Positions 1-20,868 of a stretch of 20,868 nt of DNA are shown here, piece by piece. The first letter of the stretch is position 1. Every line of letters begins with the position of its first letter. Both the position numbers and the translations under genes were made by a program. The stretch spans positions 434,001 through 454,868 of the forward strand of contig CDLV01000020.1 of the NCBI GenBank assembly GCA_001244265.2. Direction: 5' to 3'. This stretch comes from Microbotryum violaceum (lineage: Eukaryota). The notes beneath the pieces are model-generated. The model had not been told where the DNA came from. It saw only the letters and a list, made by a program, of their open reading frames with translations, and did not search any database.

Positions 1-3102
<3,102 letters not shown>

Positions 3103-3665
3103 GGTCGAGTCCGCCGTTGGAGGGAGTACTAGGTCCGCAGAGGGGAGGGGCAACTCGGCCGAAAAGGGGCTCACGGCGCGTCCGACCAGGTCCTTCCACT
3201 CGGATTCGCCGTCGAGCACGAGCGAGGCACGAGGTGCGCGATGTCGACTTGCACTGGGTACGAGGTGGCGCACAGAGGCTAGCTTGACCGCCCGGCACGG
3301 CAAGAAGAGAACGGACACTGCGACGAGGACGACGACGACGACAAAGATGGGAGGCGATCTGCGACTCGGAGAGCCCGAGTGCCAGAGAGCGGACCATTAC
3401 CTTTCATTACAAACGAAAGCTAATGCCGCCAATCACCCCGGGATAATCGGCTTCTCAAGCGCGCGCGCACGGGCCACGAGCGGGTCACGCTGGGCCACGG
3501 GCCACGTCAAAAACACGTCACTCGACCGGGGAAGCGCGCCAAGGGAAACAGGAAACAGGAAACAGGAAACAGGAAACGAATATAAACCACAAATCTGCTC
3601 CGGCTCACTCCTTTACTCCCGGGCGTGTGTAACCCCCGCCATCACTCAAACCCGGCAAACCGGAA
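3103..3665. promoter_or_regulatory. Bidirectional promoter/5' UTR region between PMR1 and the P-loop gene
   Basis: Head-to-head ATGs at 3102 (-) and 3666 (+). TATAAA at 3581-3586. Clustered GGG(C/T)CACG at 3471, 3482, 3492 and 3499. Confidence 0.6.
3544..3577 (+). repeat. (GGAAACA)x~5 heptamer tandem repeat
   Basis: Four perfect GGAAACA units plus GGAAAC, directly upstream of TATAAA. Confidence 0.95.
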
Positions 3666-6204: not shown

Positions 6205-7151
6205 CACTATATATGAGAGCACTTCCCAAATACCAGATACCAAATCGTCCCCCAGCTGCTCTCGCGCGCTGTCCAGCACGATCCTGGCAAGGAGGCTCCA
6301 TTTGGCATCTGAGACGCAGGCCGAGAATGCTGGCGATCTCCGAAACAGAAATCCCTTTCGAGGCTCGGCAGACTCGAGCTCGAGGGCTTGTGGACGGCAT
6401 TAAGTTTATTACGACTTTGTCACATTTACAGTTGGAGTGTATACGCCTGATTTGAGTTATCCTGCATCGTGCTTTTAAGATACGCAATCACACTCTTATC
6501 ACACTAGTCGTTTTGGCCTCGTCGACTTTGGTTCCGCGTGCGCCACCCACTCACTCACACGAGTCGCGGCATTCGGCAACTACAACACGCTCACCTTTGA
6601 CAATTGGCTTTCCGACGAGCTACCGAGCTCATTGGTATTTACGGTTGCGTCCGGGCTGTGTTGTTTGCACGCTTGAGCCGTCCCGACCGGACCACATGCG
6701 GGACCACGGACGACTCGCTCAGACCGCCCACAGTGAGTCGTGTCGATCCGAGCCCTCTTGCGACTTGCACTCCTTGCTGACGAGATCAAGATCTGCTGCC
6801 AACACGTGGTCGTGTGGACGGTCCATTGCTCTGACATCCTGAATCGCGCTCCGACGATACATGTATGATGTGTCGTGATAAATGGCATTTGATCATCTTC
6901 CATTTCGGAGATCGCGAGCGCTCTCAGTGGCCAAAGGCCGCCGGGCCGCCGCGGCCCTCTCAAATACGAACTGCATAGCAAGAAAGAAAAAAAAACCCTT
7001 GAAATGATCATCCCGGGATCGTCCCATTTCAGGGTTTTTTGTTTTTGTTATGTGGTGCTTGTGCGAGTCCGAGCATCCGATGTTGCAAGGATCGCGCGTG
7101 CGGAGAGCTGGCGGGAGGATTGGGTATTTGGTATTTGAAAAGTGCCCATAT
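6205..7151. mobile_element. Degenerate non-autonomous DNA element with long imperfect terminal inverted repeats (MULE/foldback/MITE-like)
   Basis: Left 6212 TATGAGAGCACTTCCCAAATACCAGATACCAAATCGTCCCCCAGCT matches the reverse complement of ~7105-7150, TATGGGCACTTTTCAAATACCAAATACCCAATCCTCCCGCCAGCT. An inner GCGATCTCCGAAA (~6333) pairs with TTTCGGAGATCGC (6903). No credible ORF and no TSD seen. Confidence 0.7.
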
Positions 7152-7420
7152 CAACAGGTCGAAACACACTAGTGAAGCTTTGGCGCTCCTGTCTGGTCTA
7201 TGGTGGCGTGCTTTCGTTATAGCCGAGCCGCCGCAATTCCACCGAAGCTCGCCCCACTCCTGTCGTCGATCGCATCGGGTTCGGCAGGATATCAGATGTT
7301 GATTGGTATGCGCATGCGGGATCTAGGAGCTTGATCACAACGCGCAGTACCAAGTCTATTTCTACATTCAGATTCGTCCATTAAAATTGCAAGACAGGAA
7401 CGCAGATGTCGAGCACGGTT

Positions 7421-9847
7421 TTACTCGCAAAGTGCCTTGAAACTCGCCTGGATGTGTTCATACGACATCTGACCGGAGGCCCAACGCGACGCAAGTTCTG
7501 GCTCAGTCTCGAAGTCTTCCAGGCCCGAAAAAGAAAATTCCAGCGAGCAATTTTGCTGCAGGACACTCAGAACCTTCTCCACGCCGGACCAACGAGATGC
7601 GCACGCATTCAGGAGCTCCCTGAAGCCGGATCTCGTAGACAGCAAGAGTTTCCTGTTTGCTGCCTCGTCGAGATCCCCGGCATTCCACATGTTCCAGATA
7701 CGCGCGGCTTTCGGCTTCTCAAAAAGTCGCGCGTCGGCAGACCCGGATTCAGATTGGAAAGCCGTGCGGCACGCCACATAGAAGAATGATTCTATATCAT
7801 GCCAGCGCTCGTGCACCACATCCTCGGTTGCGGGGCTGAGCAGGAGTCGAGAGATGTAGGGAAGCGTGCCCTGTGGTTGATCATGGTACAGGGGAAGGGT
7901 GGGAAGTAGTAAGGTGAGACCAGGAACATGTCAAGGGCTAGCACCGACGCGAGAACGTACCGAGCGGCTGAGGCGACACTCTTCTTCTGCCGTTCGAACC
8001 TTCTGCACCGCCAGATTATAATCAATCAATACTCCTTTGCCATTTTGGTCCACCATGACGTTGCCATAGGACACGTCACGGTGGATGAACCCATGTTCCC
8101 ACAGCTGACGATGCCCTGTCACGCAAGGCAAAGGGTCGTCAGTGTTGGCACACCCTTCAGCGCGCTGTCCCGCTCTGCTCTGAGCACTCACCCTCAATCG
8201 CACCCTCGAGAGCGCGCGCGAGCTGCTTGGTGGTCTTGACTGTGGCGAGTGGGTAGTAACGTTCTTCGTGAACGACGACCTCCCTGGCCCGTGGGGTGCA
8301 ACCGGCGAGGGATTCGTTGCCGGGTAGGAACACGGGGAGGGTCCTATATTCGGTGCGAAAGACGCCGACCAGTGGAGCGAGCCCGCGAGGTCTCTTTTCT
8401 TGGATCACGTTGCGGATCTCGGCCAAGTCTGAGTTGCGCGACTCCTCGACCCAGATGATCGTCATTGCGAAGGTCCTGATGTTGGCGCCCTCAGCAAGTT
8501 TGACCTCGTATGTCGACGTTGCGCGGCCGCACTCTCTTTTTCGACGAAAGATGAGCTCCTTGATCTTGACGTTGGACATCGTCGTTGCTCCCCAGATAAA
8601 CTCTGAGGCCGCCGGCGGGAAGAAGTCGGGGCAGGGCGTGAACGGGCCGTAGCGGTCGTCGAGCGAGGTTGTGGTCGCTAGAATGCCGTTAAGCCGATCG
8701 CTGTGTTGGACGAGACGGTACAAGAACGTCGACAGCTCTCCATTCTCTTCGGTGACTGTTCTAGATTTGGTAGAGAACACCCCGCAAGCAGACATCACGT
8801 AGACCTTGAGACGTTCGCCGCGAAGGGTGAACCCGATCGCATGTTCGCGAATCGGCGTTGCGAGGAGTGCCGACAACCGTCGGAACAACTGGCGCTCGGC
8901 GTTGGAGGTGCCGGCTTTGGTCTCGCCGACGGCGGCCACTTGCGTAAAGGAGCGTTTGGCCTGGTTCAGGTCCACCTTGTCCTTGTCCTTGACCTTGGCC
9001 GTGTTCGTGCTGTCTTCTTCTGCGTTGTTGTCCTCGTCGTGAGGTTGGCCCTTGTCGTTTTCGTTCGCGTTGGAGTTCACGTTGGTGGCGGGGGCCGCAT
9101 CGGCGTCGAGTTTCTTGGCCGGATCGGCGTGACTGGGAAGGGCCCATACATTCGGGAGGGTTGGGTCGTGCGCGACCGCAGCGTGGGTCAAGAGCACGAC
9201 GTCGGCCGTCTTCTCGGTCGTCTCCACACGGTCAGGTGCGACGCTGATGTACTGGGGCGAGTTCTGGCAGGCGACCAGTCGCCGGTCTCCAGTCTAGAGG
9301 TCCAACAGTAAGACAAACGGCAGTGAGAAGGCGAGTCAGCTCTCGAAGGAACATACACCCTCGATGTCAAGCGATCCAGGCGTCGACTCACCGTGTTGAT
9401 GACACCTGCTATGACCTCGCCCAGCGCTTCTTCGGTGCCCATCTTGAACTCCTTGGGCCAGATCTTGTTAGCGAGCTCGTCAGCGGTCGGATGGCCGAAG
9501 AAGTAGGCCTCGAGGGCCGCACAATGTTTTTGGTCCATCTGGACCGCTTCGGAGATCCTCTCGGCTCTGTCCGATGCTCGCTCGTGCGAGGCCGCCTCCC
9601 GGGGCGATCGTAATGGGGTCGATTGAGTCGACGATACCAAGGGAGAGACCGCGTCCCTCAGTTCGGCGAGGTCGTACGCGTTGGCGGTTGCGCTTGAGGC
9701 CGGGGCCGAGTTTGCAGCCGCTGAAATTGAGGTCGAGGGCGAGGGCGAGGGCGAGGGCGAGGTCGAGGCAAGAGCCTGAGCGGGCGAGTCGACGCCGTGT
9801 GCCACGGGCTTCGCGTTCCTTTCAGCGATGCGCGCGCTCCTGCGCAT
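7421..9847 (-). CDS. Fungal-type protein kinase (FunK1 / Pkinase_fungal family); exons 9847-9392, 9293-8192, 8115-7961, 7870-7421
   Basis: Spliced product has CGRATSTY, ALEGAIEGHRQLWEHGFIHRDVSYGNVM, GVLIDYNLA, SGTLPYIS and HERWHDIESFFYV, the characteristic FunK1 motif order. GT-AG introns at 9391-9294, 8191-8116 and 7960-7871. Start taken as first in-frame ATG (uncertain). Confidence 0.88.
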
Positions 9848-9985
9848 TGGCCCTGTCGACGCGCCGGCGCTCGGGCGCGTGAGGTTCGTGTCGGCGCGGG
9901 CGGTCACTGCAACGGCCCCAATTGGGGCGTGGGCCAGTGGCGTCAGTCATGCGAGTCAAAACAAGGCCAAGCTCGGTCTATTATG

Positions 9986-10285: not shown

Positions 10286-10826
10286 GTGGAACAACGGTCT
10301 TTTCTGAAGTGTTTGTCGGATTTTTACACCCTCTTTTCCAAAGATGTCGGCTTTTGCACATGCGCCTCAATATCTCACCAAAAGTTGCTCTGCATGCTCC
10401 AAAACTTGCTCAAAAGTCGTCGAAAACGCGTTCCGTTTGCGGGCGCGCGGCGGCCGGCCGATCGAACATAGCGAAAAACCCCCCGGGATGGGGCGGATTG
10501 ACTATGAAAGTGGCTTGCCGCATCTTGCCGCGCGCGTCGCTTCAACTGTCTTTGGCTGGTCTCCCAGCCTCTTGAAAAGCTTCAGCCTTCCTTGCATATT
10601 CGGTGATGGGCTCGTGACTCGCTTGTCAGACTTGGATTTTGCTGATTTTGGGCGCATTGTATCCGCGGTGTCGTTCTTGCGGCTTGTAGAGGCTCTACCG
10701 GCGGCATCCCGCGGGTCGGGCACGCTCCGAAGGACGTCAAATCGTGGCTCGGCATGTGCGCTCGTGGTGATAATGCGCTCGTCGGAAGTGAGATCCGCGG
10801 TTGAACGACACAAAGTCGCTGCGGTT

Positions 10827-12460
10827 GAACGATACGCAGTGTCCGATCAGGACGAGATCGTAAACGCAGTTGCAGCGGCGAACTTCTGCACAAAGATCGA
10901 CCTTCAAGGTACTTCCCAACAAATTCGCATCAAGGACGAAGATGTGAAGAATACCGCGTTCAGCACCCCTAACGGGATCCTGTACTTACTTGTCGCTCAA
11001 CAAGGCGATCGCAACAGCACGGCTACACTACACCGGCTCGTCTCATTTGCTTTTGTTAGACTCTACAATCGCAAGATCAAACATTACGCCGACGACCTGT
11101 GGCCCATCTCTAATACCAAGTCCACGGCATCCGCATTCCTATCTCAAAGTTCAAATTCGCTACAGAGATTCGCGACTCTCTTGTCAGGAAGATTCGCCTG
11201 GGAGAAAGCTCGATGCAGCCGGAAAAGGCGGCTGGCATCCGAGCCACCCCAGCTCCTAAGTACAAGAAGGATCTTCAACGTTTCCTAGGAGCGATGGGAT
11301 ATAACCATCGATCAACCCCGCACCTTGCCGAGCTAGCGGCGCCTTTGGATGCACTGACAGGGGTGAACAGCCCCTGGAGATGGTCCCGAGCTTGCAGCGA
11401 CGCTTTTGAAACTATCAAGGCTGCATTCGACGACAGTGCCAAACTCACCTGCATTCGCTCAGACGAGCTTGCACCCGATGGTACCTTCCCGGTCCCCCTA
11501 GACACCCCTCCGGCCGAAGGAGAAAAGGTGCTAGAGAACGAGTCCAAAGGGAAGTACCTCTTCCTCCAAATCGGCGCCTCAGTTACAGGAGTCGGCTACG
11601 TGCTCAGCATCGGAACCAACTGGTGGACAGCGATACCCACGGGCTACCACTCGCGAAAGTTCTCGCCTTCCCAATTCAATTACAACACCCAGGACCAAGA
11701 GCTCCAGGGCATGTACGAAGGATTTAAACGCTTCGAAACATAGCTGTGAGGACGTCCATTCATCGTCCTCACGGACAGCCAGGCTCTTGCGAAGCTCACA
11801 ACACTCCCAACGCTGTCCAGAAAACAGACGCGCATGTACCTCTACGTCTCGGAATTTGCATACACGGCTGAGCACACCGCAGGCAGGGCGAACGCCATGC
11901 CCGATATTTTACCGCGAACACCTTGCGATGCACCCACCTAGCACTGACCCAGAATCAGAGACGGACGAATTAGCTCCTTAGAAGATCGCAGCCAAGGAGT
12001 TGAACGAACTCAACCTCGAAGACAGGCCCAGCAGGACGCGCCGAGCACCGGAGAGGTGGGAGGTTTCGATGCACACCCCGAAGAAACAGCGGACCCCTAC
12101 ACATCCGGCGTCGAAGAATTCTCCGAAGCCTACGAGAGGAAAAGCTAAACCGCCTGCCGAAGACAAGCAAGCGTAAGTGGCGAGACTGCGCAGCACAGAC
12201 ACGCGCTGGACAAAGTCAGAGGAAGTCGCCACAGTGTTAGACCCAAAACATAGTGGATAACTCAGTACGGGGTTTCAACAGAAAACCTTTCCCTTGCGGA
12301 AGACCGCGGACCCAGCCAACTCGACGTACAAGCTTGCCCTCCCGCAACGCTATACATCTCGCGGGATCCGTAGCACGTTCCACGCATCCCAACTCAACGT
12401 TTTCAAATTTTCAGACGAATCCCGATTCCCAAAACGACTTGTTGGCTCAGTCCCGGTCTA
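10827..12460 (+). mobile_element. Decayed Ty3/Gypsy LTR-retrotransposon pol fragment (RT, RNase H, integrase C-terminus)
   Basis: RT: TKIDLQGTSQQIRIKDEDVKNTAFSTPNG...QGDRNS...YADD (11085-11096). After a frameshift: DLQRFLGAMGY...AAPLDALT, and RNase H YLFLQIGASVTGVGYVL...YHSRKFSPSQFNYNTQDQEL...*L*GRPFIVLTDSQAL. Integrase tail STYKLALPQ...STFHASQL. Internal stops at 11741 and 11747. Gag, protease and integrase core not seen. Confidence 0.92.
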
Positions 12461-12519
12461 CCTGATTGACTCACCGATGGTCATCGCATACGTACCCAAC
12501 CACTGCATGGACTCGTCGA

Positions 12520-13202
12520 GAACGAAGCAGGCGAGCTCGAAGGAACACTCGTCTGCTCCAACACCCCTCAAGGACAACGAGCAGAAGCGCTTCATTCAAC
12601 AAACTCATTGCGGCGGGACTTCACCTCGGTCTAGCTGCCCAGGAGTACTTGGCCAAGAACAAGGTCACCACGATCTGGGACCTCAAACCTGGCAAAAAAG
12701 AAATTTCCATCGCCGACCCTGACTATGATTTCCATCTTCAGAGGAAACCCATCTCACGATACACCAAAGCGAGCGCAGCATCACGCAATGAACCGCGCGG
12801 GACCGCCTAAACAAGGGAACGCAACTTCATCAGCGACCTCGAGGAAACGGCCGCCAAGCCGACAGGATTACCTCCGCGATGGAGAAGACCCAACAAAGTC
12901 AAGCACTGCTCGCCGACTCGACCGCCCAGCCGATCACGATAACTGGTCGTACGAGATCGAGACCGTACAGCAGGATGCCTCCCGCACTCCGACCGGCCGC
13001 ACCTACGCGCTAAGTAGCAAACGCCACTCTGGCGGCCCCTCCGCCCCTGAGGGAACAATTTCGCCTACAGGCGTAGCAGGCGAGTCACCAGCGGCAGCAA
13101 ACCGCCCAAGCCGAGTATCGACGTATTCAAGATCAGCAAGCCGTCACCAACGCACTGGCAAAACAAGCCCTCAACAACTACCGGGATCCCCCCTAGGCGG
13201 TG
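12520..13202 (+). pseudogene. Frameshifted coding-like remnant downstream of pol, unknown identity, cut by the array element
   Basis: Overlapping + ORFs (…KLIAAGLHLGLAAQEYLAKNKVTTIWDLKPG…; …WSYEIETVQQDAS…) with protein-like composition, ending at the 13203 junction. No recognisable domain. Confidence 0.3.
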
Positions 13203-15175
13203 ACAGTATATACGTATCATAGGTGGGGTACAGGCCAATTCCGGGATACGTTTTGGAATAGAACCCCAAATTCCCAGTGAAAATGAAAATTGACAGTGCA
13301 CGGTCAATTGCTCGTGCACTGCTGAAATCCACTTTTTCGACTCTGAAGGGCGGCACAAGTCAAAAACCGTCAAATCGAGGTGCACGGTCGATTGCTCGTG
13401 CACTGCTAAAATCCACTTTTTCGACTCTGAAGGGCGGCACAAGCCGAAAATCGTCAAATCGAGGTGCACGGTCAATTGCTCGTGCACTGCTGAAATCCAC
13501 TTTTTCGGCAAAACCGTCAAATCGAGGTGCACGGTCGATTGCTCGTGCACTGCTGAAATCCACTTTTTCGACTCTGAAGGGCGGCACAAGCCAAAAACCG
13601 TCAAATCGAGGTGCACGGTCAATTGCTCGTGCACTGCTGAAATCCACTTTTTCGACTCTGAAGGGCGGCACAAGCCAAAAACCGTCAAATCGAGGTGCAC
13701 GGTCGATTGCTCGTGCACTGCTGAAATCCACTTTTTCGACTCTGAAGGGCGGCACAAGCCGAAAATCGTCAAATCGAGGTGCACGGTCAATTGCTCGTGC
13801 ACTGCTGAAATCCACTTTTTCGGCAAAACCGTCAAATCGAGGTGCACGGTCGATTGCTCGTGCACTGCTGAAATCCACTTTTTCGACTCTGAAGGGCGGC
13901 ACAAGCCAAAAACCGTCAAATCGAGGTGCACGGTCAATTGCTCGTGCACTGCTGAAATCCACTTTTTCGACTCTGAAGGGCGGCACAAGTCAAAAACCGT
14001 CAAATCGAGGTGCACGGTCGATTGCTCGTGCACTGCTAAAATCCACTTTTTCGACTCTGAAGGGCGGCACAAGCCGAAAATCGTCAAATCGAGGTGCACG
14101 GTCAATTGCTCGTGCACTGCTGAAATCCACTTTTTCGGCAAAACCGTCAAATCGAGGTGCACGGTCGATTGCTCGTGCACTGCTGAAATCCACTTTTTCG
14201 ACTCTGAAGGGCGGCACAAGCCAAAAACCGTCAAATCGAGGTGCACGGTCAATTGCTCGTGCACTGCTGAAATCCACTTTTTCGACTCTGAAGGGCGGCA
14301 CAAGCCAAAAACCGTCAAATCGAGGTGCACGGTCAATTGCTCGTGCACTGCTGAAATCCACTTTTCGACTCTGAAGGGCGGCACAAGCCAAAAACCGTCA
14401 AATCGAGGTGCACGGTCAATTGCTCGTGCACTGCTGAAATCCACTTTTCGACTCTGAAGGGCGGCACAAGCCAAAAACCGTCAAATCGAGGTGCACGGTC
14501 GATTGCTCGTGCACTGCTAAAATCCACTTTTTCGACTCTGAAGGGCGGCACAAGCCGAAAATCGTCAAATCGAGGTGCACGGTCGATTGCTCGTGCACTG
14601 CTAAAATCCACTTTTTCGACTCTGAAGGGCGGCACAAGCCGAAAATCGTCAAATCGAGGTGCACGGTCGATTGCTCGTGCACTGCTGAAATCCACTTTTT
14701 CGACTCTGAAGGGCGGCACAAGCCAAAAACCGTCAAATCGAGGTGCACGGTCAATTGCTCGTGCACTGCTGAAATCCACTTTTCGACTCTGAAGGGCGGC
14801 ACAAGCCAAAAACCGTCAAATCGAGGTGCACGGTCAATTGCTCGTGCACTGCTGAAATCCACTTTTCGACTCTGAAGGGCGGCACAAGCCAAAAACCGTC
14901 AAATCGAGGTGCACGGTCAATTGCTCGTGCACTGCTGAAATCCACTTTTCGACTCTGAAGGGCGGCACAAGTCAAAAACCGTCAAATCGAGGTGCACGGT
15001 CAATTGCTCGTGCACTGCTGAAATCCACTTTTCGACTCTGAAGGGCGGCACAAGTCAAAAACCGTCAAATCGAGGTGCACGGTCGATTGCTCGTGCACTG
15101 CTGAAATCCACTTTTTTGGCAAAACCGTCGAATCGAGGTGCACGGTCAATTGCTCGCGCACTGCTGAAATCCACT
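13203..15175 (+). mobile_element. Leader+tandem-array element, copy 1 (93-bp leader 13203-13295, then array)
   Basis: Leader ACAGTATATACGTATCATAGG...AAAATTGACA is identical to 19948-20040 while the upstream flanks are unrelated. Confidence 0.75.
13296..15175 (+). repeat. Tandem array of 84-bp unit (83- and 63-bp variants), 23 full units + 38-bp partial
   Basis: Unit GTGCACGGTCRATTGCTCGTGCACTGCTGAAATCCACTTTTTCGACTCTGAAGGGCGGCACAAGCCAAAAACCGTCAAATCGAG. Starts at 13296, 13380, 13464, 13527, 13611 ... 15075, 15138. Confidence 0.98.
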
Positions 15176-15545
15176 GTATATATGGGCCATTGCCAAATAT
15201 CACATGGCACAGACTTCCGCGAGGCGCTTGCAAAGAAGCTCGCGCGAGGATTCTGTGGTATTAAGTTGGAGAGAGGGGTGGGGCCAGCCGCACTCTCAGC
15301 CTTCGGCCACCGGCGCTCGCGATTTCCGAAATGGGAAACCCATTTCGGGCTTCGGTATATCGCTGGAGCTGAGGCACGGCAGACTTGAGGACTTGTAGAC
15401 GTAAATAAGTTTATTGTAAATCTGTCCCAATCCCAACTGATGTGTACATGCTTAATTTGTGCTATTATGCATTGTGCTTTGAGTATACTCAAGGACACTA
15501 GTCTTTGTGGCCTTGACGACTTTGGGGCGCCCGCGCGGTCCACTG
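15172..15545 (+). mobile_element. Left end of a second member of the 6205-7151 long-TIR family
   Basis: 15495-15525 matches 6501-6531 at 27/31. 15313-15333 matches the reverse complement of 6901-6921 at 20/21. Shared TAAGTTTATT (15406/6401) and TATATATG(G/A)G start. Matching right end not found in window. Confidence 0.8.
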
Positions 15546-16429
15546 CTTTTTGTCCTCGGGCCAGAATAATTGTACGGACATGTCCGTTCACTTGATTTTA
15601 GGTACACATCGAGATCAGATAATAATGATGCTGTTGAACAATTGTATGAGTAGACCCACTTTTCATCTGCAAGGAGAACATGATAGCATGTGTATTTGGT
15701 GACCGAACTTCAAGTTGTGCGCAAACGAAGTGCCGACCGCTTCATCTTGTCACCGACGTTCTATTAAAGAAAGCCTAATCTCAACGCTACCAGATATACC
15801 TCTCTCTTCATTCATATCATAGTAGTGCGGTCTGCGAGGGACTCCCAGTGAGACCTGCTTCCAAGACACGCCTGGCGTGACTATGACTCGGAGTCTCGTC
15901 TACCATCGCGCGATGATCTCGCCCGTAATCGGATCAAAAATGTGCTCCCGAATACGATGTCTTTCCCTCAATCTTCCGACATAACTCATCTAAATGCCCA
16001 GAACAGCCCTTCCTTAAAATAATGTCAATTGTACAAGCACGCTCAGTGACCTGGACGAGTCGACGTGTTTGCCGCGGACGCCGGCCGACTCACTCGTTCA
16101 ACGACCCCGGCCAAGCCCTGACCTCGGAATTACTCGCTCTCTCTAGCCTTGGAACTTTCTCGCATCCCTTTTCGAGTTTCAAAAAGATATACGCCTTTAA
16201 AGGTTGACTGGACCTGAGCCAATCGGAGACCGATCTCACCGCCGAGTGCGCCGACTCGGAGCTTCGGGTTCTCGCGCGGTTAGCTGATAGGCTCGACTTC
16301 GGACTCGCGCGCGCCAACGCTCCTTTCCCTCTCGCCACTCACTTCTCACTCGGACCACTCGACTCGGACTCGGCACTGATCGCGCCACGCCACACCTCGA
16401 CTTCACATGCTTTCACATCGTTCACATGC

Positions 16430-17720
16430 GCCATGCAATGTGCAAGATGCAACTCGGTCTCTCCCAACTACAGCTCGACGTGTCACTTCAAGCCGACTGA
16501 TTTGCGCACGGTGCGACGTCGCACCACGTGGTCAACAACACTGCCGTCTTCAACACGATACAAAGACTGCAACCTGAGAGAGTGCGGTCACTTTCAGCAG
16601 CCTTCAAGCTTAGGTCAATGCATCGCTCGAGCGTTCTCGGTCGGACACGTATTCGGTCACCGCTTCACCACGATCGCCTCGCGTCGTCAACGTCAATCAA
16701 GCACACGAATGCAATCCCTCACATCTCTTTCTTGATTGAGTCGAAGAGTCTCATCGACGCGGCTAGCTCGGGGTTTGTTGGAACATCTGTTGCACGACCC
16801 GACTGTTCTCGTCAATGTCGAGTCCGAGACCATCATCGGCTCAAGCACTTTCATCCGTCTCAACCCCGCCGCGATCCACTCAAACTTCCGCACTCGTGAT
16901 CCAGCTCTTCGAGTCATCCGTCCAAAGCCACTACGTCTCAACTTGTCGCTCTAAACATCCCACATTCCCGGTCGTCTCCTTGCCGTTCAAGTTGACCGCA
17001 CTTGCATGCTGGGTTCTTCCCTTGTCGATCGCATCAACCAATTGACTTGCTGATAAAGCTCTCAAGATTTCTCACGGAACACCTCCTCATCCGCTGACAT
17101 CTTACTCAAACACCGTCCTACATTGCGCACAATGATCCATACAGCCAGGACTCGGGCTTCTTCGGACCACTCCGCGCTCGAATTCGGCATTGGACCTTGA
17201 CGATCCTCCGCACTCTCAATCAACCTCGGCGATTTGCTCGACCGACTGGATACGTGTGATCACCATTCCATCTCTGTGACTTGTACATTCGTGCAGACCC
17301 TGGTCATTTGGTCATGGAATACGCTCAGCCACGCACAGTGCTTCTTTCCCTCTCGCTTCGCTTGTTCATGCACTCACCACGCATGTGTCGACGAAGTCTT
17401 TGGGGGTGAGCAGTCACTAAGCGTGCGTACGCCTGCAAGGTCAGTGCATGCCTTCAACCCGAAGTCCTTACCTCCCTCCACACCTTATGTTGCAAGTGTG
17501 TGCAATATTGCTCATGTTTGATGGTTGATTTGCTCCACCTGGTCTTAGACTTCCGCCTGCGCTCAACTCAACTCTTTGGACTCCAAACCGCTCGCAACCG
17601 TTTCCAGTCCGTCTCCCAGAAGAATGATCGTCGACTCTTCACTGAGGTCTGAGCGTTGAGGGCTCAATCGAACCAAGTTTGCAAGCTGATCCAAGGAACG
17701 GATCCAGTTTGAGTGAAGTG
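16430..17720 (+). pseudogene. Possible degenerate gene remnant of unknown identity
   Basis: Short protein-like stretches broken by stops and frameshifts (e.g. LARGLLEHLLHDPTVLVNVE; MVDLLHLVLDFRLRSTQLFGLQTARNRF), preceded by a pyrimidine-rich 5'UTR-like tract at 16320-16430. No motif recognised. Confidence 0.25.
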
Positions 17721-17917
17721 ACATAAAAATGAAAACAGGGCGACATGTTAGAGAAAAAAGACCACTATTTGACAGGTCCATTAAAATCCTTGAACGATGA
17801 AATGTTGCAATCTACGCTGAAGACTTCCACAATTGTACCATCCAGGGTTGGTTTACATTGTGAATATGATTACAGTTTCATGACATACTGCTTTTGGAAG
17901 ATAATGGGGATGAATTA

Positions 17918-19947
17918 TCATTTACCGGAGGGAGCTGTGTTCAGACGGCGTTTTTGCATGGCAGTCAACTTTGACTGTTTGGAGGCAGAGGAAGTGGTGG
18001 TCGGCTTCGTGGCCAGCGTCGTCTGCTTGGTTTTGGGCGGGGATATGTCGCGTTCAGCCTTCCTCTTCCTACTGTCGCTTTCGGCCTTACCCATCTTGTC
18101 ATTTGACGGGCCAGCAATGGACAACCCATTGAATCGGTTGGGGTTCAAGCGCACGGGCATTGGCGAAGAAACGGGTGGAGCGACCTTGGCCCCCTTGGCT
18201 CGTTGTGGATCAGAGGCAGAGTTCTTGATAGGGCTCTCCGATGCGTCACGGAGTTCTGGCTCGAGCGGCATTGGCGAGGACGAGTCATGTACAGCTAGTC
18301 CAGTGATGTCACCGTAGTTCGCATTGCTGACCGGCAACTGACGACCCGAAGCTGCACTCTTGTTCGACACAGCCGGACAATCTTCGGCATCGGTACCCAC
18401 CTCCTTGGACAAGTCAACGTCCATGGGTTTTACCTTTTGCTGCGTGCCTCCTTTGCGAGTGGGAGTGGGTGCGCCAGTACAATGCCGGCCTCCAGACTTG
18501 ACCACAGCTCCCTTGCCCTTGCCAGCAACGACTTCCTCGTCCTCTTCTTCACTCTTGTACTCAGGGCCCGCAGCCCAATCAAGGTAGCCTTCCATGGTGG
18601 TGATGACATCTGCCTCTGCACGGAAGCATTTCAGGTGTTGATCGAGCTTCTTCACGGTGATTGGTGTCGCCTGCAAACAGAAAGTAGATGTTAGTCTCAG
18701 TACTTTAGGGGGGGAATTTGGCAGCAAGTGTGCCCACCTTGAACTTGACTACAGCACCACTCGCCACAAGGGACGATAGGAACGCGAGGAGCGCGGCATC
18801 GAGTTGTGTCCCAGATGGACGGACGGTGAAAGACTCGCAAGCCAAGACACCGAGATCGATTGCACGCGAATCTTCGAGTAACGTGCGCGCCTGCGTTTGA
18901 ATCGCCCGAGCCTTGCTCGCCTTGCCTTTGAAAGATGTCTTTGCGCCAGCGTCTTCCTCCGAACCAGAGGTGTTCTCAGGGGCGGCCTCAAAGGCGTTGT
19001 CCAAGACATGCTTCTTCATAGCCGACTGGCGGAAAATGACCTTGATAAAGTGATGATAATATTTATCCAACCGAACAGCCTAATAGGCACGGCCAAAACC
19101 ACCCAAGAACGAGTCAGCAATCTTGCACCGCAAGAGGAGCCCAAGAGACATGATCAAGAGCGAGGTAGTCGCGCAAGAATGAGTGCAAGGGCCGAAGCGC
19201 CCATCCGCAGCCCAGGTGCACTCCTTGTCACAATAAACTTGACTTACATGAGGCAGCTTGGGAAGAGGATCTTTGGTACTGGAATTTGCCTTAGCGGCAG
19301 CCGCTGGGGTGTGGTGATGTGCGTCACGGGCGTTCTTTGCCACACCCGACCATTTGTTGCGCACGTTGGCCGGGATCGGAAGGAACTCGTCGGTGAACAC
19401 ATTGATATCCAAGAACTTGGAGTTCAACCACTCCTTCATCAAGTGGGTGATGGTCTGGGGGGCTTTGATCCCCTTGATGCCGCTCCATTTAATACCCTGA
19501 TTTTTCAGATTCTTGGTGTACGCATGAGACCCAATCGGAACGACGAGATCATTGAGGAAGAAGTCAAAATGGGTGTCAGACGCCGCTCGAATCTTGGACC
19601 ACATTGGCATGCAGGCCCAGCTGCAAGAATCCGCTACCATAGCATCATAACGACTCTTCTCTTGTTTGTTGATGATAGGCAAGAACGACTTTGGATGCAT
19701 TGAGGTAGCGTTTGGTTCAGCATCGGCTGACGTAGCGTGCGGTTTGGTGTCAGCTGGCGCAAGCAAGTTGTCCGCTTTTGCCGATGCGACGTTTTTTTTT
19801 GCGGCCCGTACATCACTATGAGATGCCTTCCGAGGCTCGGGCGGTCCTTTCTTGACTTCGAGGGTGCCTACTCCGAGGAACCCGCGAGATTGATGACACC
19901 CGGGGTGGTGAGTCGCTTGATGGTTTTGGGTGTGAAGAACATCAACC
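17918..19947 (-). CDS. Uncharacterised intron-containing gene, apparently 5'-truncated by array element 2; exons ~19947-19248, 19079-18738, 18670-17918
   Basis: Intron 19247-19080 (GTAAGT...GCTGAC...TAG) and intron 18737-18671 (GTGGGC...CTAAC...TTGCAG) fuse three ORFs in frame (…KLPH|AVRLDKYY…VKFK|ATPITVKK…). Acidic patch and Lys/Ser-rich disordered C-terminus with RKRK and KRR. The frame stays open up to the element junction. Confidence 0.7.
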
Positions 19948-20802
19948 ACAGTATATACGTATCATAGGTGGGGTACAGGCCAATTCCGGGATACGTTTTG
20001 GAATAGAACCCCAAATTCCCAGTGAAAATGAAAATTGACAGTGCACGGTCAATTGCTCGTGCACTGCTGAAATCCACTTTTTCGACTCTGAAGGGCGGCA
20101 CAAGCCAAAAACCGTCAAATCGAGGTGCACGGTCGATTGCTCGTGCACTGCTGAAATCCACTTTTTCGACTCTGAAGGGCGGCACAAGCCAAAAACCGTC
20201 AAATCGAGGTGCACGGTCGATTGCTCGTGCACTGCTGAAATCCACCTTTTCGACTCTGAAGGGCGGCACAAGCCAAAAACCGTCAAATCGAGGTGCACGG
20301 TCGATTGCTCGTGCACTGCTGAAATCCACTTTTTCGACTCTGAAGGGCGGCACAAGCCAAAAACCGTCAAATCGAGGTGCACGGTCGATTGCTCGTGCAC
20401 TGCTAAAATCCACTTTTTCGACTCTGAAGGGCGGCACAAGCCAAAACCGTCAAATCGAGGTGCACGGTCGATTGCTCGTGCACTGCTGAAATCCACTTTT
20501 TCGACTCTGAAGGGCGGCACAAGCCAAAAACCGTCAAATCGAGGTGCACGGTCGATTGCTCGTGCACTGCTGAAATCCACTTTTTCGACTCTGAAGGGCG
20601 GCACAAGCCAAAACCGTCAAATCGAGGTGCACGGTCGATTGCTCGTGCACTGCTGAAATCCACTTTTTCGACTCTGAAGGGCGGAACAGGTGGAAAACCG
20701 TCAAATCGAGGTGCACGGTCAATTGCTCGTGCACTGCTGAAATCCACTTTTTCGACTCTGAAGGCCCCAACAAGGCGAAAACCGTCAAATCGAGGTGCAC
20801 GG
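19948..20802 (+). mobile_element. Leader+tandem-array element, copy 2 (leader 19948-20040; may continue past window end)
   Basis: 93-bp leader identical to 13203-13295, followed by the same 84-bp array. Confidence 0.75.
20041..20802 (+). repeat. Tandem array of 84/83-bp unit, 9 full units + 8-bp stub
   Basis: Starts at 20041, 20125, 20209, 20293, 20377, 20460, 20544, 20627, 20711, 20795. The last two full units are diverged. Confidence 0.98.
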
Positions 20803-20868
20803 GGAATTCCTCGGGCATTGCGAGATGGCAGTGCAGCGTGAAACTTTGTGCACCGAGTAAGCCTGAGC

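Follow-up and report, generated by a model that had tools for sequence, protein, structure and literature searches.

Coprina, Athena and the giant Terminons, which are endonuclease-deficient Penelope-like elements, are among the closest described counterparts of a leader-and-array element found twice in a 20,868-nucleotide stretch of the Microbotryum violaceum genome (assembly GCA_001244265.2, contig CDLV01000020.1, positions 434,001 to 454,868; hereafter the window). They are terminal, with a fixed proximal end, outward truncation and head-to-tail arrays, and they retain introns and carry extra open reading frames (ORFs) and captured genes (passages in PMC6431247, PMC8557442 and PMC13159263). 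These elements attach to telomeric repeats via reverse-complement repeats beside a hammerhead ribozyme and encode a reverse transcriptase (RT), whereas the Microbotryum element joins non-telomeric DNA after AG, with no hammerhead, repeat seed or RT found. Drosophila HeT-A (with TART and TAHRE) is, like the Microbotryum element, non-autonomous, confined to telomeres and arranged in head-to-tail arrays of one orientation (part of PMC5537684). However, HeT-A attaches through its poly(A) tail, codes for Gag and takes the place of telomerase, while the present element has no poly(A), a sequence-specific join, varying cargo and a telomerase gene in its host genome. MoTeR of the blast fungus is a further fungal, terminal and oriented element, tied to terminal truncation and DNA capture (part of PMC8381367); MoTeRs insert into telomere repeats, unlike the element described here, which has such repeats at 0 of 20 junctions.

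Helentron/DINE-1 and CACTA elements also combine a short unique end with a tandem palindromic array, and are two-ended and interspersed, whereas the present element is one-ended and terminal. Helitrons have a 5′ TC after A (or a TT target), a 3′ hairpin with CTRR, and RepHel. In contrast to Helitrons and Helentrons, the junction here is AG then T and the bodies contain no RepHel. Starships share a possible DUF3723-like cargo with the element, and differ in that its bodies have no captain recombinase and no flanking direct repeats; Starship recombinases are generally lacking in basidiomycetes, the host's group (according to part of PMC11162782). The Microbotryum element works like telomere-healing elements, yet without the tested hallmarks of Coprina/Athena/Terminon, HeT-A, MoTeR, terminal-inverted-repeat transposons, Helitrons or Starships. 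It is very probably a telomere-capping element, with an attachment that appears to differ from that of the systems compared.

Leader, array and placement at contig ends

The window forms the right end of contig C18, its final 20,868 bases, in an assembly of 33 Mb and 20 contigs, and stops with the contig at 20868. It holds two copies of the element, with the following parts:

13207 to 13295, plus strand: leader of copy 1, the fixed centromere-side end, joined after the flanking AG (13205-13206)
13296 to 15173, plus strand: tandem array of copy 1, 24 units of 83-84 or 63 bases by count of unit starts
15171 to 15700, plus strand: post-array block common to element variants, beginning as one end of a degenerate inverted-repeat unit
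15171 to 19951, no strand assigned: type A body, ended outward by the next leader; copies are 98.7-100% identical
19952 to 20040, plus strand: leader of copy 2, joined after AG (19950-19951) within an orphan gene
20041 to 20818, plus strand: tandem array of copy 2, 10 units, A-type grading into B-type by unit comparison
20803 to 20868, plus strand: start of the type B linker, up to the contig end, a 100% match to the left ends of C3, C8 and C10

A first-pass annotation had described identical leaders with unrelated flanks, heading arrays of 24 and 10 unit starts. Both observations stand: identity extends over 157 bases from 13203 and 19948 with no leftward match, and the units measure 83-84 bases with 63-base variants. 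The ACAG common to both copies is flank, and the true element start is TATATACG at 13207 and 19952. That annotation also called the leader unique, which it is not: it has at least 25 genome matches on 15 contig ends, a lower bound because only the best candidates were scored. Its view of an element that moved recently and whose fixed end is followed by an expanding array agrees with array lengths of 2 to 34 units across genome copies; the copies are real and recently mobile. It missed the confinement to chromosome ends, the outward facing and the AG-then-A/T rule set out below.

The leader is identical over 89 bases in 11 of the 25 matches, the rest being variants or a second subfamily. Each array unit bears an imperfect 24-base palindrome, GTGCAC-N4-(A/G)ATT-N4-GTGCAC, whose outer arms and centre are kept between subfamilies while the inner bases are changed. 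Neither the leader (z 0.40) nor a single array unit folds better than its shuffles. Arrays recombine too, since copy 2 grades from A-type to B-type units and lengths run from 2 to 34.

All 25 leader matches lie within 37.4 kb of the contig end that they face; the outermost 40 kb of all ends together make up about 5% of the genome. The end faced is the nearest one for 23 of them; the 2 exceptions sit on the 44-kb contig C20 and repeat junctions known from C5 and C6. Innermost junctions are strictly polar on many ends, and none of the 25 matches is an interior, non-terminal copy. A leader is present within the last 10 kb of 8 of the 20 left ends, right ends having been covered around leader matches and in two pieces. 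The post-array block, which contains a hairpin with a 10-bp stem at 15326-15348, has 19 genome matches, none farther than about 72 kb from a contig end, and the body ORF is confined to C18-right, C8-left and C17-right. Copies are stacked head to tail, each ended outward by the next leader. No inverted partner leader occurs among the 25 matches, sequence beyond contig ends not being visible, and no target duplication was seen at element copies.

Bodies are truncated solely on the outward side. Type A copies stop at six positions, 15502, 15799, 17350, 17366, 19680 and 19951, each time at a new leader or a contig end; within this body a following leader is placed at 15502, about 15792 or 19951. 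Type B bodies pass through an inverted-repeat unit of about 3.2 kb and on into an intron-bearing fungal kinase gene. Both cargo genes, the orphan gene and the kinase gene, read toward the leader. Two sequencing runs, guessed to be RNA and possibly DNA, cover parts of the body. A Crypton-like direct repeat, GTATATA, around leader and array was considered and discarded, its second copy being the end of a separate inverted-repeat unit.

The AG junction and the sequences it caps

Twenty distinct flanks from 19 independent sites define the junction. The last bases are AG in seventeen of them and AG plus G in 3, TATAT follows in every case, and AG, which makes up 6% of dinucleotides, is the only sequence common to all of them. 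At the 19 independent sites the donor breakpoint is constant to within one base, and the sequence shared by donor and target is often AG alone. An uncapped allele was found for 11 of these sites (9 by flank comparison, the C11 end and window copy 2, the latter in sequencing run X16), the closest allele being used where uncapped copies had diverged, and run X18 supplied a twelfth uncapped junction. All 12 uncapped targets read AG then T (5) or A (7), against a background of 0.45 per site (p 7e-5).

The C5/C6/C20 junction recurs in contigs of other runs, which add three flanks in keeping with the AG rule. Run X16 has two further flanks, ending in ACAG and in AG plus G, and junctions therefore differ between isolates. 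At copy 2, a contig of run X4 extends no more than 27 bases past the leader start, fewer than the 31 set for a bridge.

The two window copies cap the following sequences:

10344 to 13202, plus strand: decayed Ty3/gypsy pol fragment, target of copy 1, with RVT_1, RT_RNaseH and weak SH3_Tf2-1 matches
17918 to 19951, minus strand: 3′ part (codons 449-1047) of the orphan gene, possibly DUF3723-like, reading toward the leader; no Pfam family

Both copies therefore cut coding DNA, as the first-pass annotation had proposed, copy 1 in gypsy pol and copy 2 in an intron-bearing orphan gene of 1047 amino acids at codon 449. The empty site that it suggested looking for exists at copy 2, where a 10.2-kb contig of run X16 passes through; the uncapped allele is also present in P0001 and P0002. 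Its suggested alignment of flanks fixed the start, TATATACG after AG, and gave no target duplication. A two-ended CACTA, foldback or Helentron transposon, which it had offered as a parallel, finds no inverted partner among the 25 matches, no target duplication and no enzyme in 82 body frames. Its alternative of long direct terminal repeats around 15176-19947 fails because body cut positions vary and an uncapped allele of the cut gene exists. Its judgement that the end cannot be assigned to a known superfamily holds, with no fit among the families tested.

The orphan gene is whole in M. silenes-dioicae, and the window protein matches proteins labelled at source as Microbotryum lychnidis-dioicae and M. 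silenes-dioicae, which marks the host as an anther-smut fungus; no relatives were found outside Microbotryum. Residues 1-447 were not found in the assembly, one weak match aside, so the DNA beyond the junction appears lost. As for a Gag ORF, the long orphan ORF matches no Pfam family. On ESM Atlas features the protein is possibly DUF3723-like, with a score of 0.97 and the family present in 22-78% of the cluster members. A single-sequence AlphaFold model had a predicted local distance difference test score (pLDDT) of 35 and was not used. At 19880-19882 the window has one base fewer than runs X4 and X16, and the frameshift of the orphan gene there is probably an assembly error.

Targets elsewhere are equally varied, and some leaders cap earlier copies of the element. 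On C10 the leader caps a 730-base fold-back palindrome. On C11 it caps a copia RT gene broken within RT, 27 bases from the contig end; the junction there carries an extra G absent from the target and is missing one C. In this region (L036:1-1230) the copia sits in the C11 array and is itself cut in RT and then capped by a new leader, so the order of events at C11 is known. The inverted flank at C3-left (363 bases, 97%) may be a repeat copy instead of a fold-back. A hairpin-telomere (resolvase) reading of GTATATAC was ruled out, since the palindrome never reaches into the flank.

Routes of attachment

The element is very probably a non-autonomous, one-ended unit that caps chromosome ends. In the copies themselves the fixed end, leader plus array, is joined facing outward to a truncated chromosome end after AG, and variable subtelomeric DNA follows it, later cut and recapped. 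Capping is supported by the terminal placement, the junction rule in flanks and uncapped alleles, the apparent loss of DNA beyond the junction, the outward truncation of bodies, and the capped fold-back and broken copia gene on C10 and C11. The leading account of how the join is made, which we hold tentatively and which falls just short of being probable, is that broken ends prime reverse transcription by an enzyme supplied in trans. Transcription would run toward the centromere (minus strand in the window), and at its 3′ end the RNA would be the reverse complement of two flank bases and the leader. These flank-derived bases would pair with a chromosome whose exposed 3′ end is AG. An RT acting in trans, either telomerase or an endonuclease-less Penelope-like enzyme, would then extend the chromosome on the element RNA. 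Slippage on the alternating TA run could yield targets that continue with T or A, and recombination would spread capped ends between chromosomes and reshuffle arrays.

This RNA route is favoured because the architecture is like that of HeT-A and Terminon, because the cargo genes read toward the leader and because introns are kept in Penelope-like elements. The latter point, together with mention of a Coprina element for Microbotryum violaceum, comes from part of PMC8557442. The telomerase RNA-binding domain found in the genome is also counted in its favour.

Several results weigh against the capping account or its RNA route. Contig ends are taken, by inference, to be chromosome ends or telomeres, and (TTAGGG)3 has 0 matches in the assembly; several junctions recur at more than one end, and the 25 leader matches are therefore not independent. 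Neither telomeric repeats nor poly(A) occurred at any of the 20 flanks, the junctions being AG then TATATACG. All 7 non-T targets have A, which base pairing alone does not predict and which is more suggestive of a specific enzyme. A precise RNA 3′ end is left unexplained because the leader folds like its shuffles, and the strand argument rests on 2 cargo genes only. No RT was found in the 82 frames of assembled bodies, all of them truncated outward, and no RT with a degenerate Coprina motif was found in the genome, a weak test. The hammerhead core CUGANGA...GAAA was absent from both strands of three bodies, and Rfam returned nothing for the leader and first units (13100-13700) up to an E value of 10.

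Other searches for enzymes gave a single sub-cut-off zf-RVT match at C5, beyond the shared body. None of 150 scored RVT_1 matches (of 500 candidates) lay within 30 kb of a contig end, which is no test of absence. No DUF3435 tyrosine recombinase was present in leader-adjacent frames, the whole genome not having been searched.

One-ended DNA strand transfer is the strongest competitor to reverse transcription, though we consider it unlikely. A HUH (rolling-circle), tyrosine or DDE enzyme acting on the palindromic array would nick the donor after AG and join the leader to a target nicked at AG-then-A/T; copying would proceed to the donor telomere, and only outward products would be viable. Such a mechanism accounts for the junction rule and the cargo as well as the RNA route does: the same AG precedes each donor end and each target, the preference reaches one base past the junction, and introns and any outward DNA would be carried without RNA. 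The conservation pattern of the palindrome resembles that of a protein-binding site, to judge from the sequence. Helitrons are present in the genome, and the cargo is similar to DUF3723, one of the auxiliary families found in Starships (part of PMC11162782). However, no transposase, Rep-helicase or recombinase was detected in the 82 body frames, and the Helitron near C5, at first a candidate for a link, was rejected, since it belongs to an ordinary family that is spread through the genome and ends in a CTAG of its own. Precise transesterification would also not be expected to add a G, as in 3 of 20 junctions, unless the G is inherited by a subfamily, and strand transfer predicts two-ended insertions elsewhere, whereas 0 of 25 matches are interior.

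Host repair alone is improbable. Microhomology-mediated break-induced replication, or end joining, would start from a break-prone GTATATAC palindrome at the leader start. Fold-back palindromes and ends common to several contigs indicate active end repair, and microhomology-mediated terminal DNA capture is reported for telomerase-knockout blast fungus (part of PMC8381367), yet generic repair would scatter the breakpoints, which at 19 sites are constant within one base. Least probable of all is self-nesting of an ordinary two-ended or direct-repeat element whose far end, like the remainder of the target, lies beyond the contig ends, or an assembly error: contigs do stop inside elements, C8-left is nearly identical to C18-right from 15171 to the end and the DNA after the interior C8 copy is unrelated, but polarity at innermost junctions is strict, no inverted leader occurs, cut positions vary, the missing half of the orphan gene was not found and contigs from other runs repeat the C5/C6/C20 junction and add three flanks that obey the rule.

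The terminal zone and subtelomeric gene change

Inward of the two copies, the window contains the following features:

7424 to 9293, minus strand: intron-bearing fungal protein kinase gene (PF17667); at other ends, type B bodies carry it on the outward side of the leader
6207 to 7153, no strand assigned: older, leaderless relic of the inverted-repeat unit, with inverted ends 83% alike over 52 bases
1 to 3318, minus strand: PMR1-like P-type ATPase, an ordinary gene of the host on the inner side of the terminal zone

The relic is 67-82% similar to element bodies and begins about 15 bases past the stop codon of the last ordinary gene. A small insertion between A and T runs at 6993-7045, missing from the C10 copy, has short inverted ends and a palindrome at its centre. 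On the outward side of the kinase gene, an inverted duplication at 9509-9967 is common to C8, C10 and C17.

Other contig ends show further rearrangement. The first 10 kb of C6 (C6:1-10000, L031) is a 9.07-kb palindrome with arms 98.9% identical, which is either an artefact of assembly or a chromosome end folded back on itself. C5 carries a 9.8-kb direct duplication, 99% identical and with a Helitron inside (C5:1-9800 and C5:46799-56642; L030, L050), and its terminus holds a short degenerate tandem repeat and a palindrome that recurs at window position 7009. Loss of telomerase was considered and is unsupported: the RNA-binding domain is present (the domain only, not the whole gene), TTAGGG ends are on record, and there is one interstitial (TTAGGG)2. 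The recorded ends are scaffold ends of M. lychnidis-dioicae (part of PMC4469406). The interstitial repeat, at L035:8640, lies within one arm of an inverted duplication and is possibly an old mark of telomerase healing.

A literature search returned no description of the element in titles, abstract openings or passages, those of PMC4209133, bioRxiv 2021.10.29.466223 and bioRxiv 2022.08.03.502670 included; Repbase and Dfam were not checked. The repeat may already be known as a subtelomeric marker through the 2015 genome paper, from which PMC5967549 draws the 'subtelomeric repeats' that it maps.

The telomere-healing elements compared attach by poly(A) or telomeric repeats, while the present one apparently joins ordinary DNA at a strictly defined junction; its host genome has kept a telomerase gene. 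The element offers a natural assay for which enzyme heals broken ends. A bolder proposal, which we consider doubtful, is a class of cargo-carrying end elements in which a non-coding leader and palindromic array would direct an AG-then-A/T join to broken chromosomes, with neither telomeric repeats nor ribozyme nor poly(A) involved. Telomerase would be made to copy an RNA of kilobase length that bears introns, or else one-ended strand transfer would graft an entire donor subtelomere; if such a class exists, terminal genes would be deleted, duplicated and shuffled by it. In Microbotryum, gene gain or loss affects 10.7% of subtelomeric genes compared with 2% overall (part of PMC5967549), and the element offers a concrete, testable cause for this subtelomeric gain and loss of genes.

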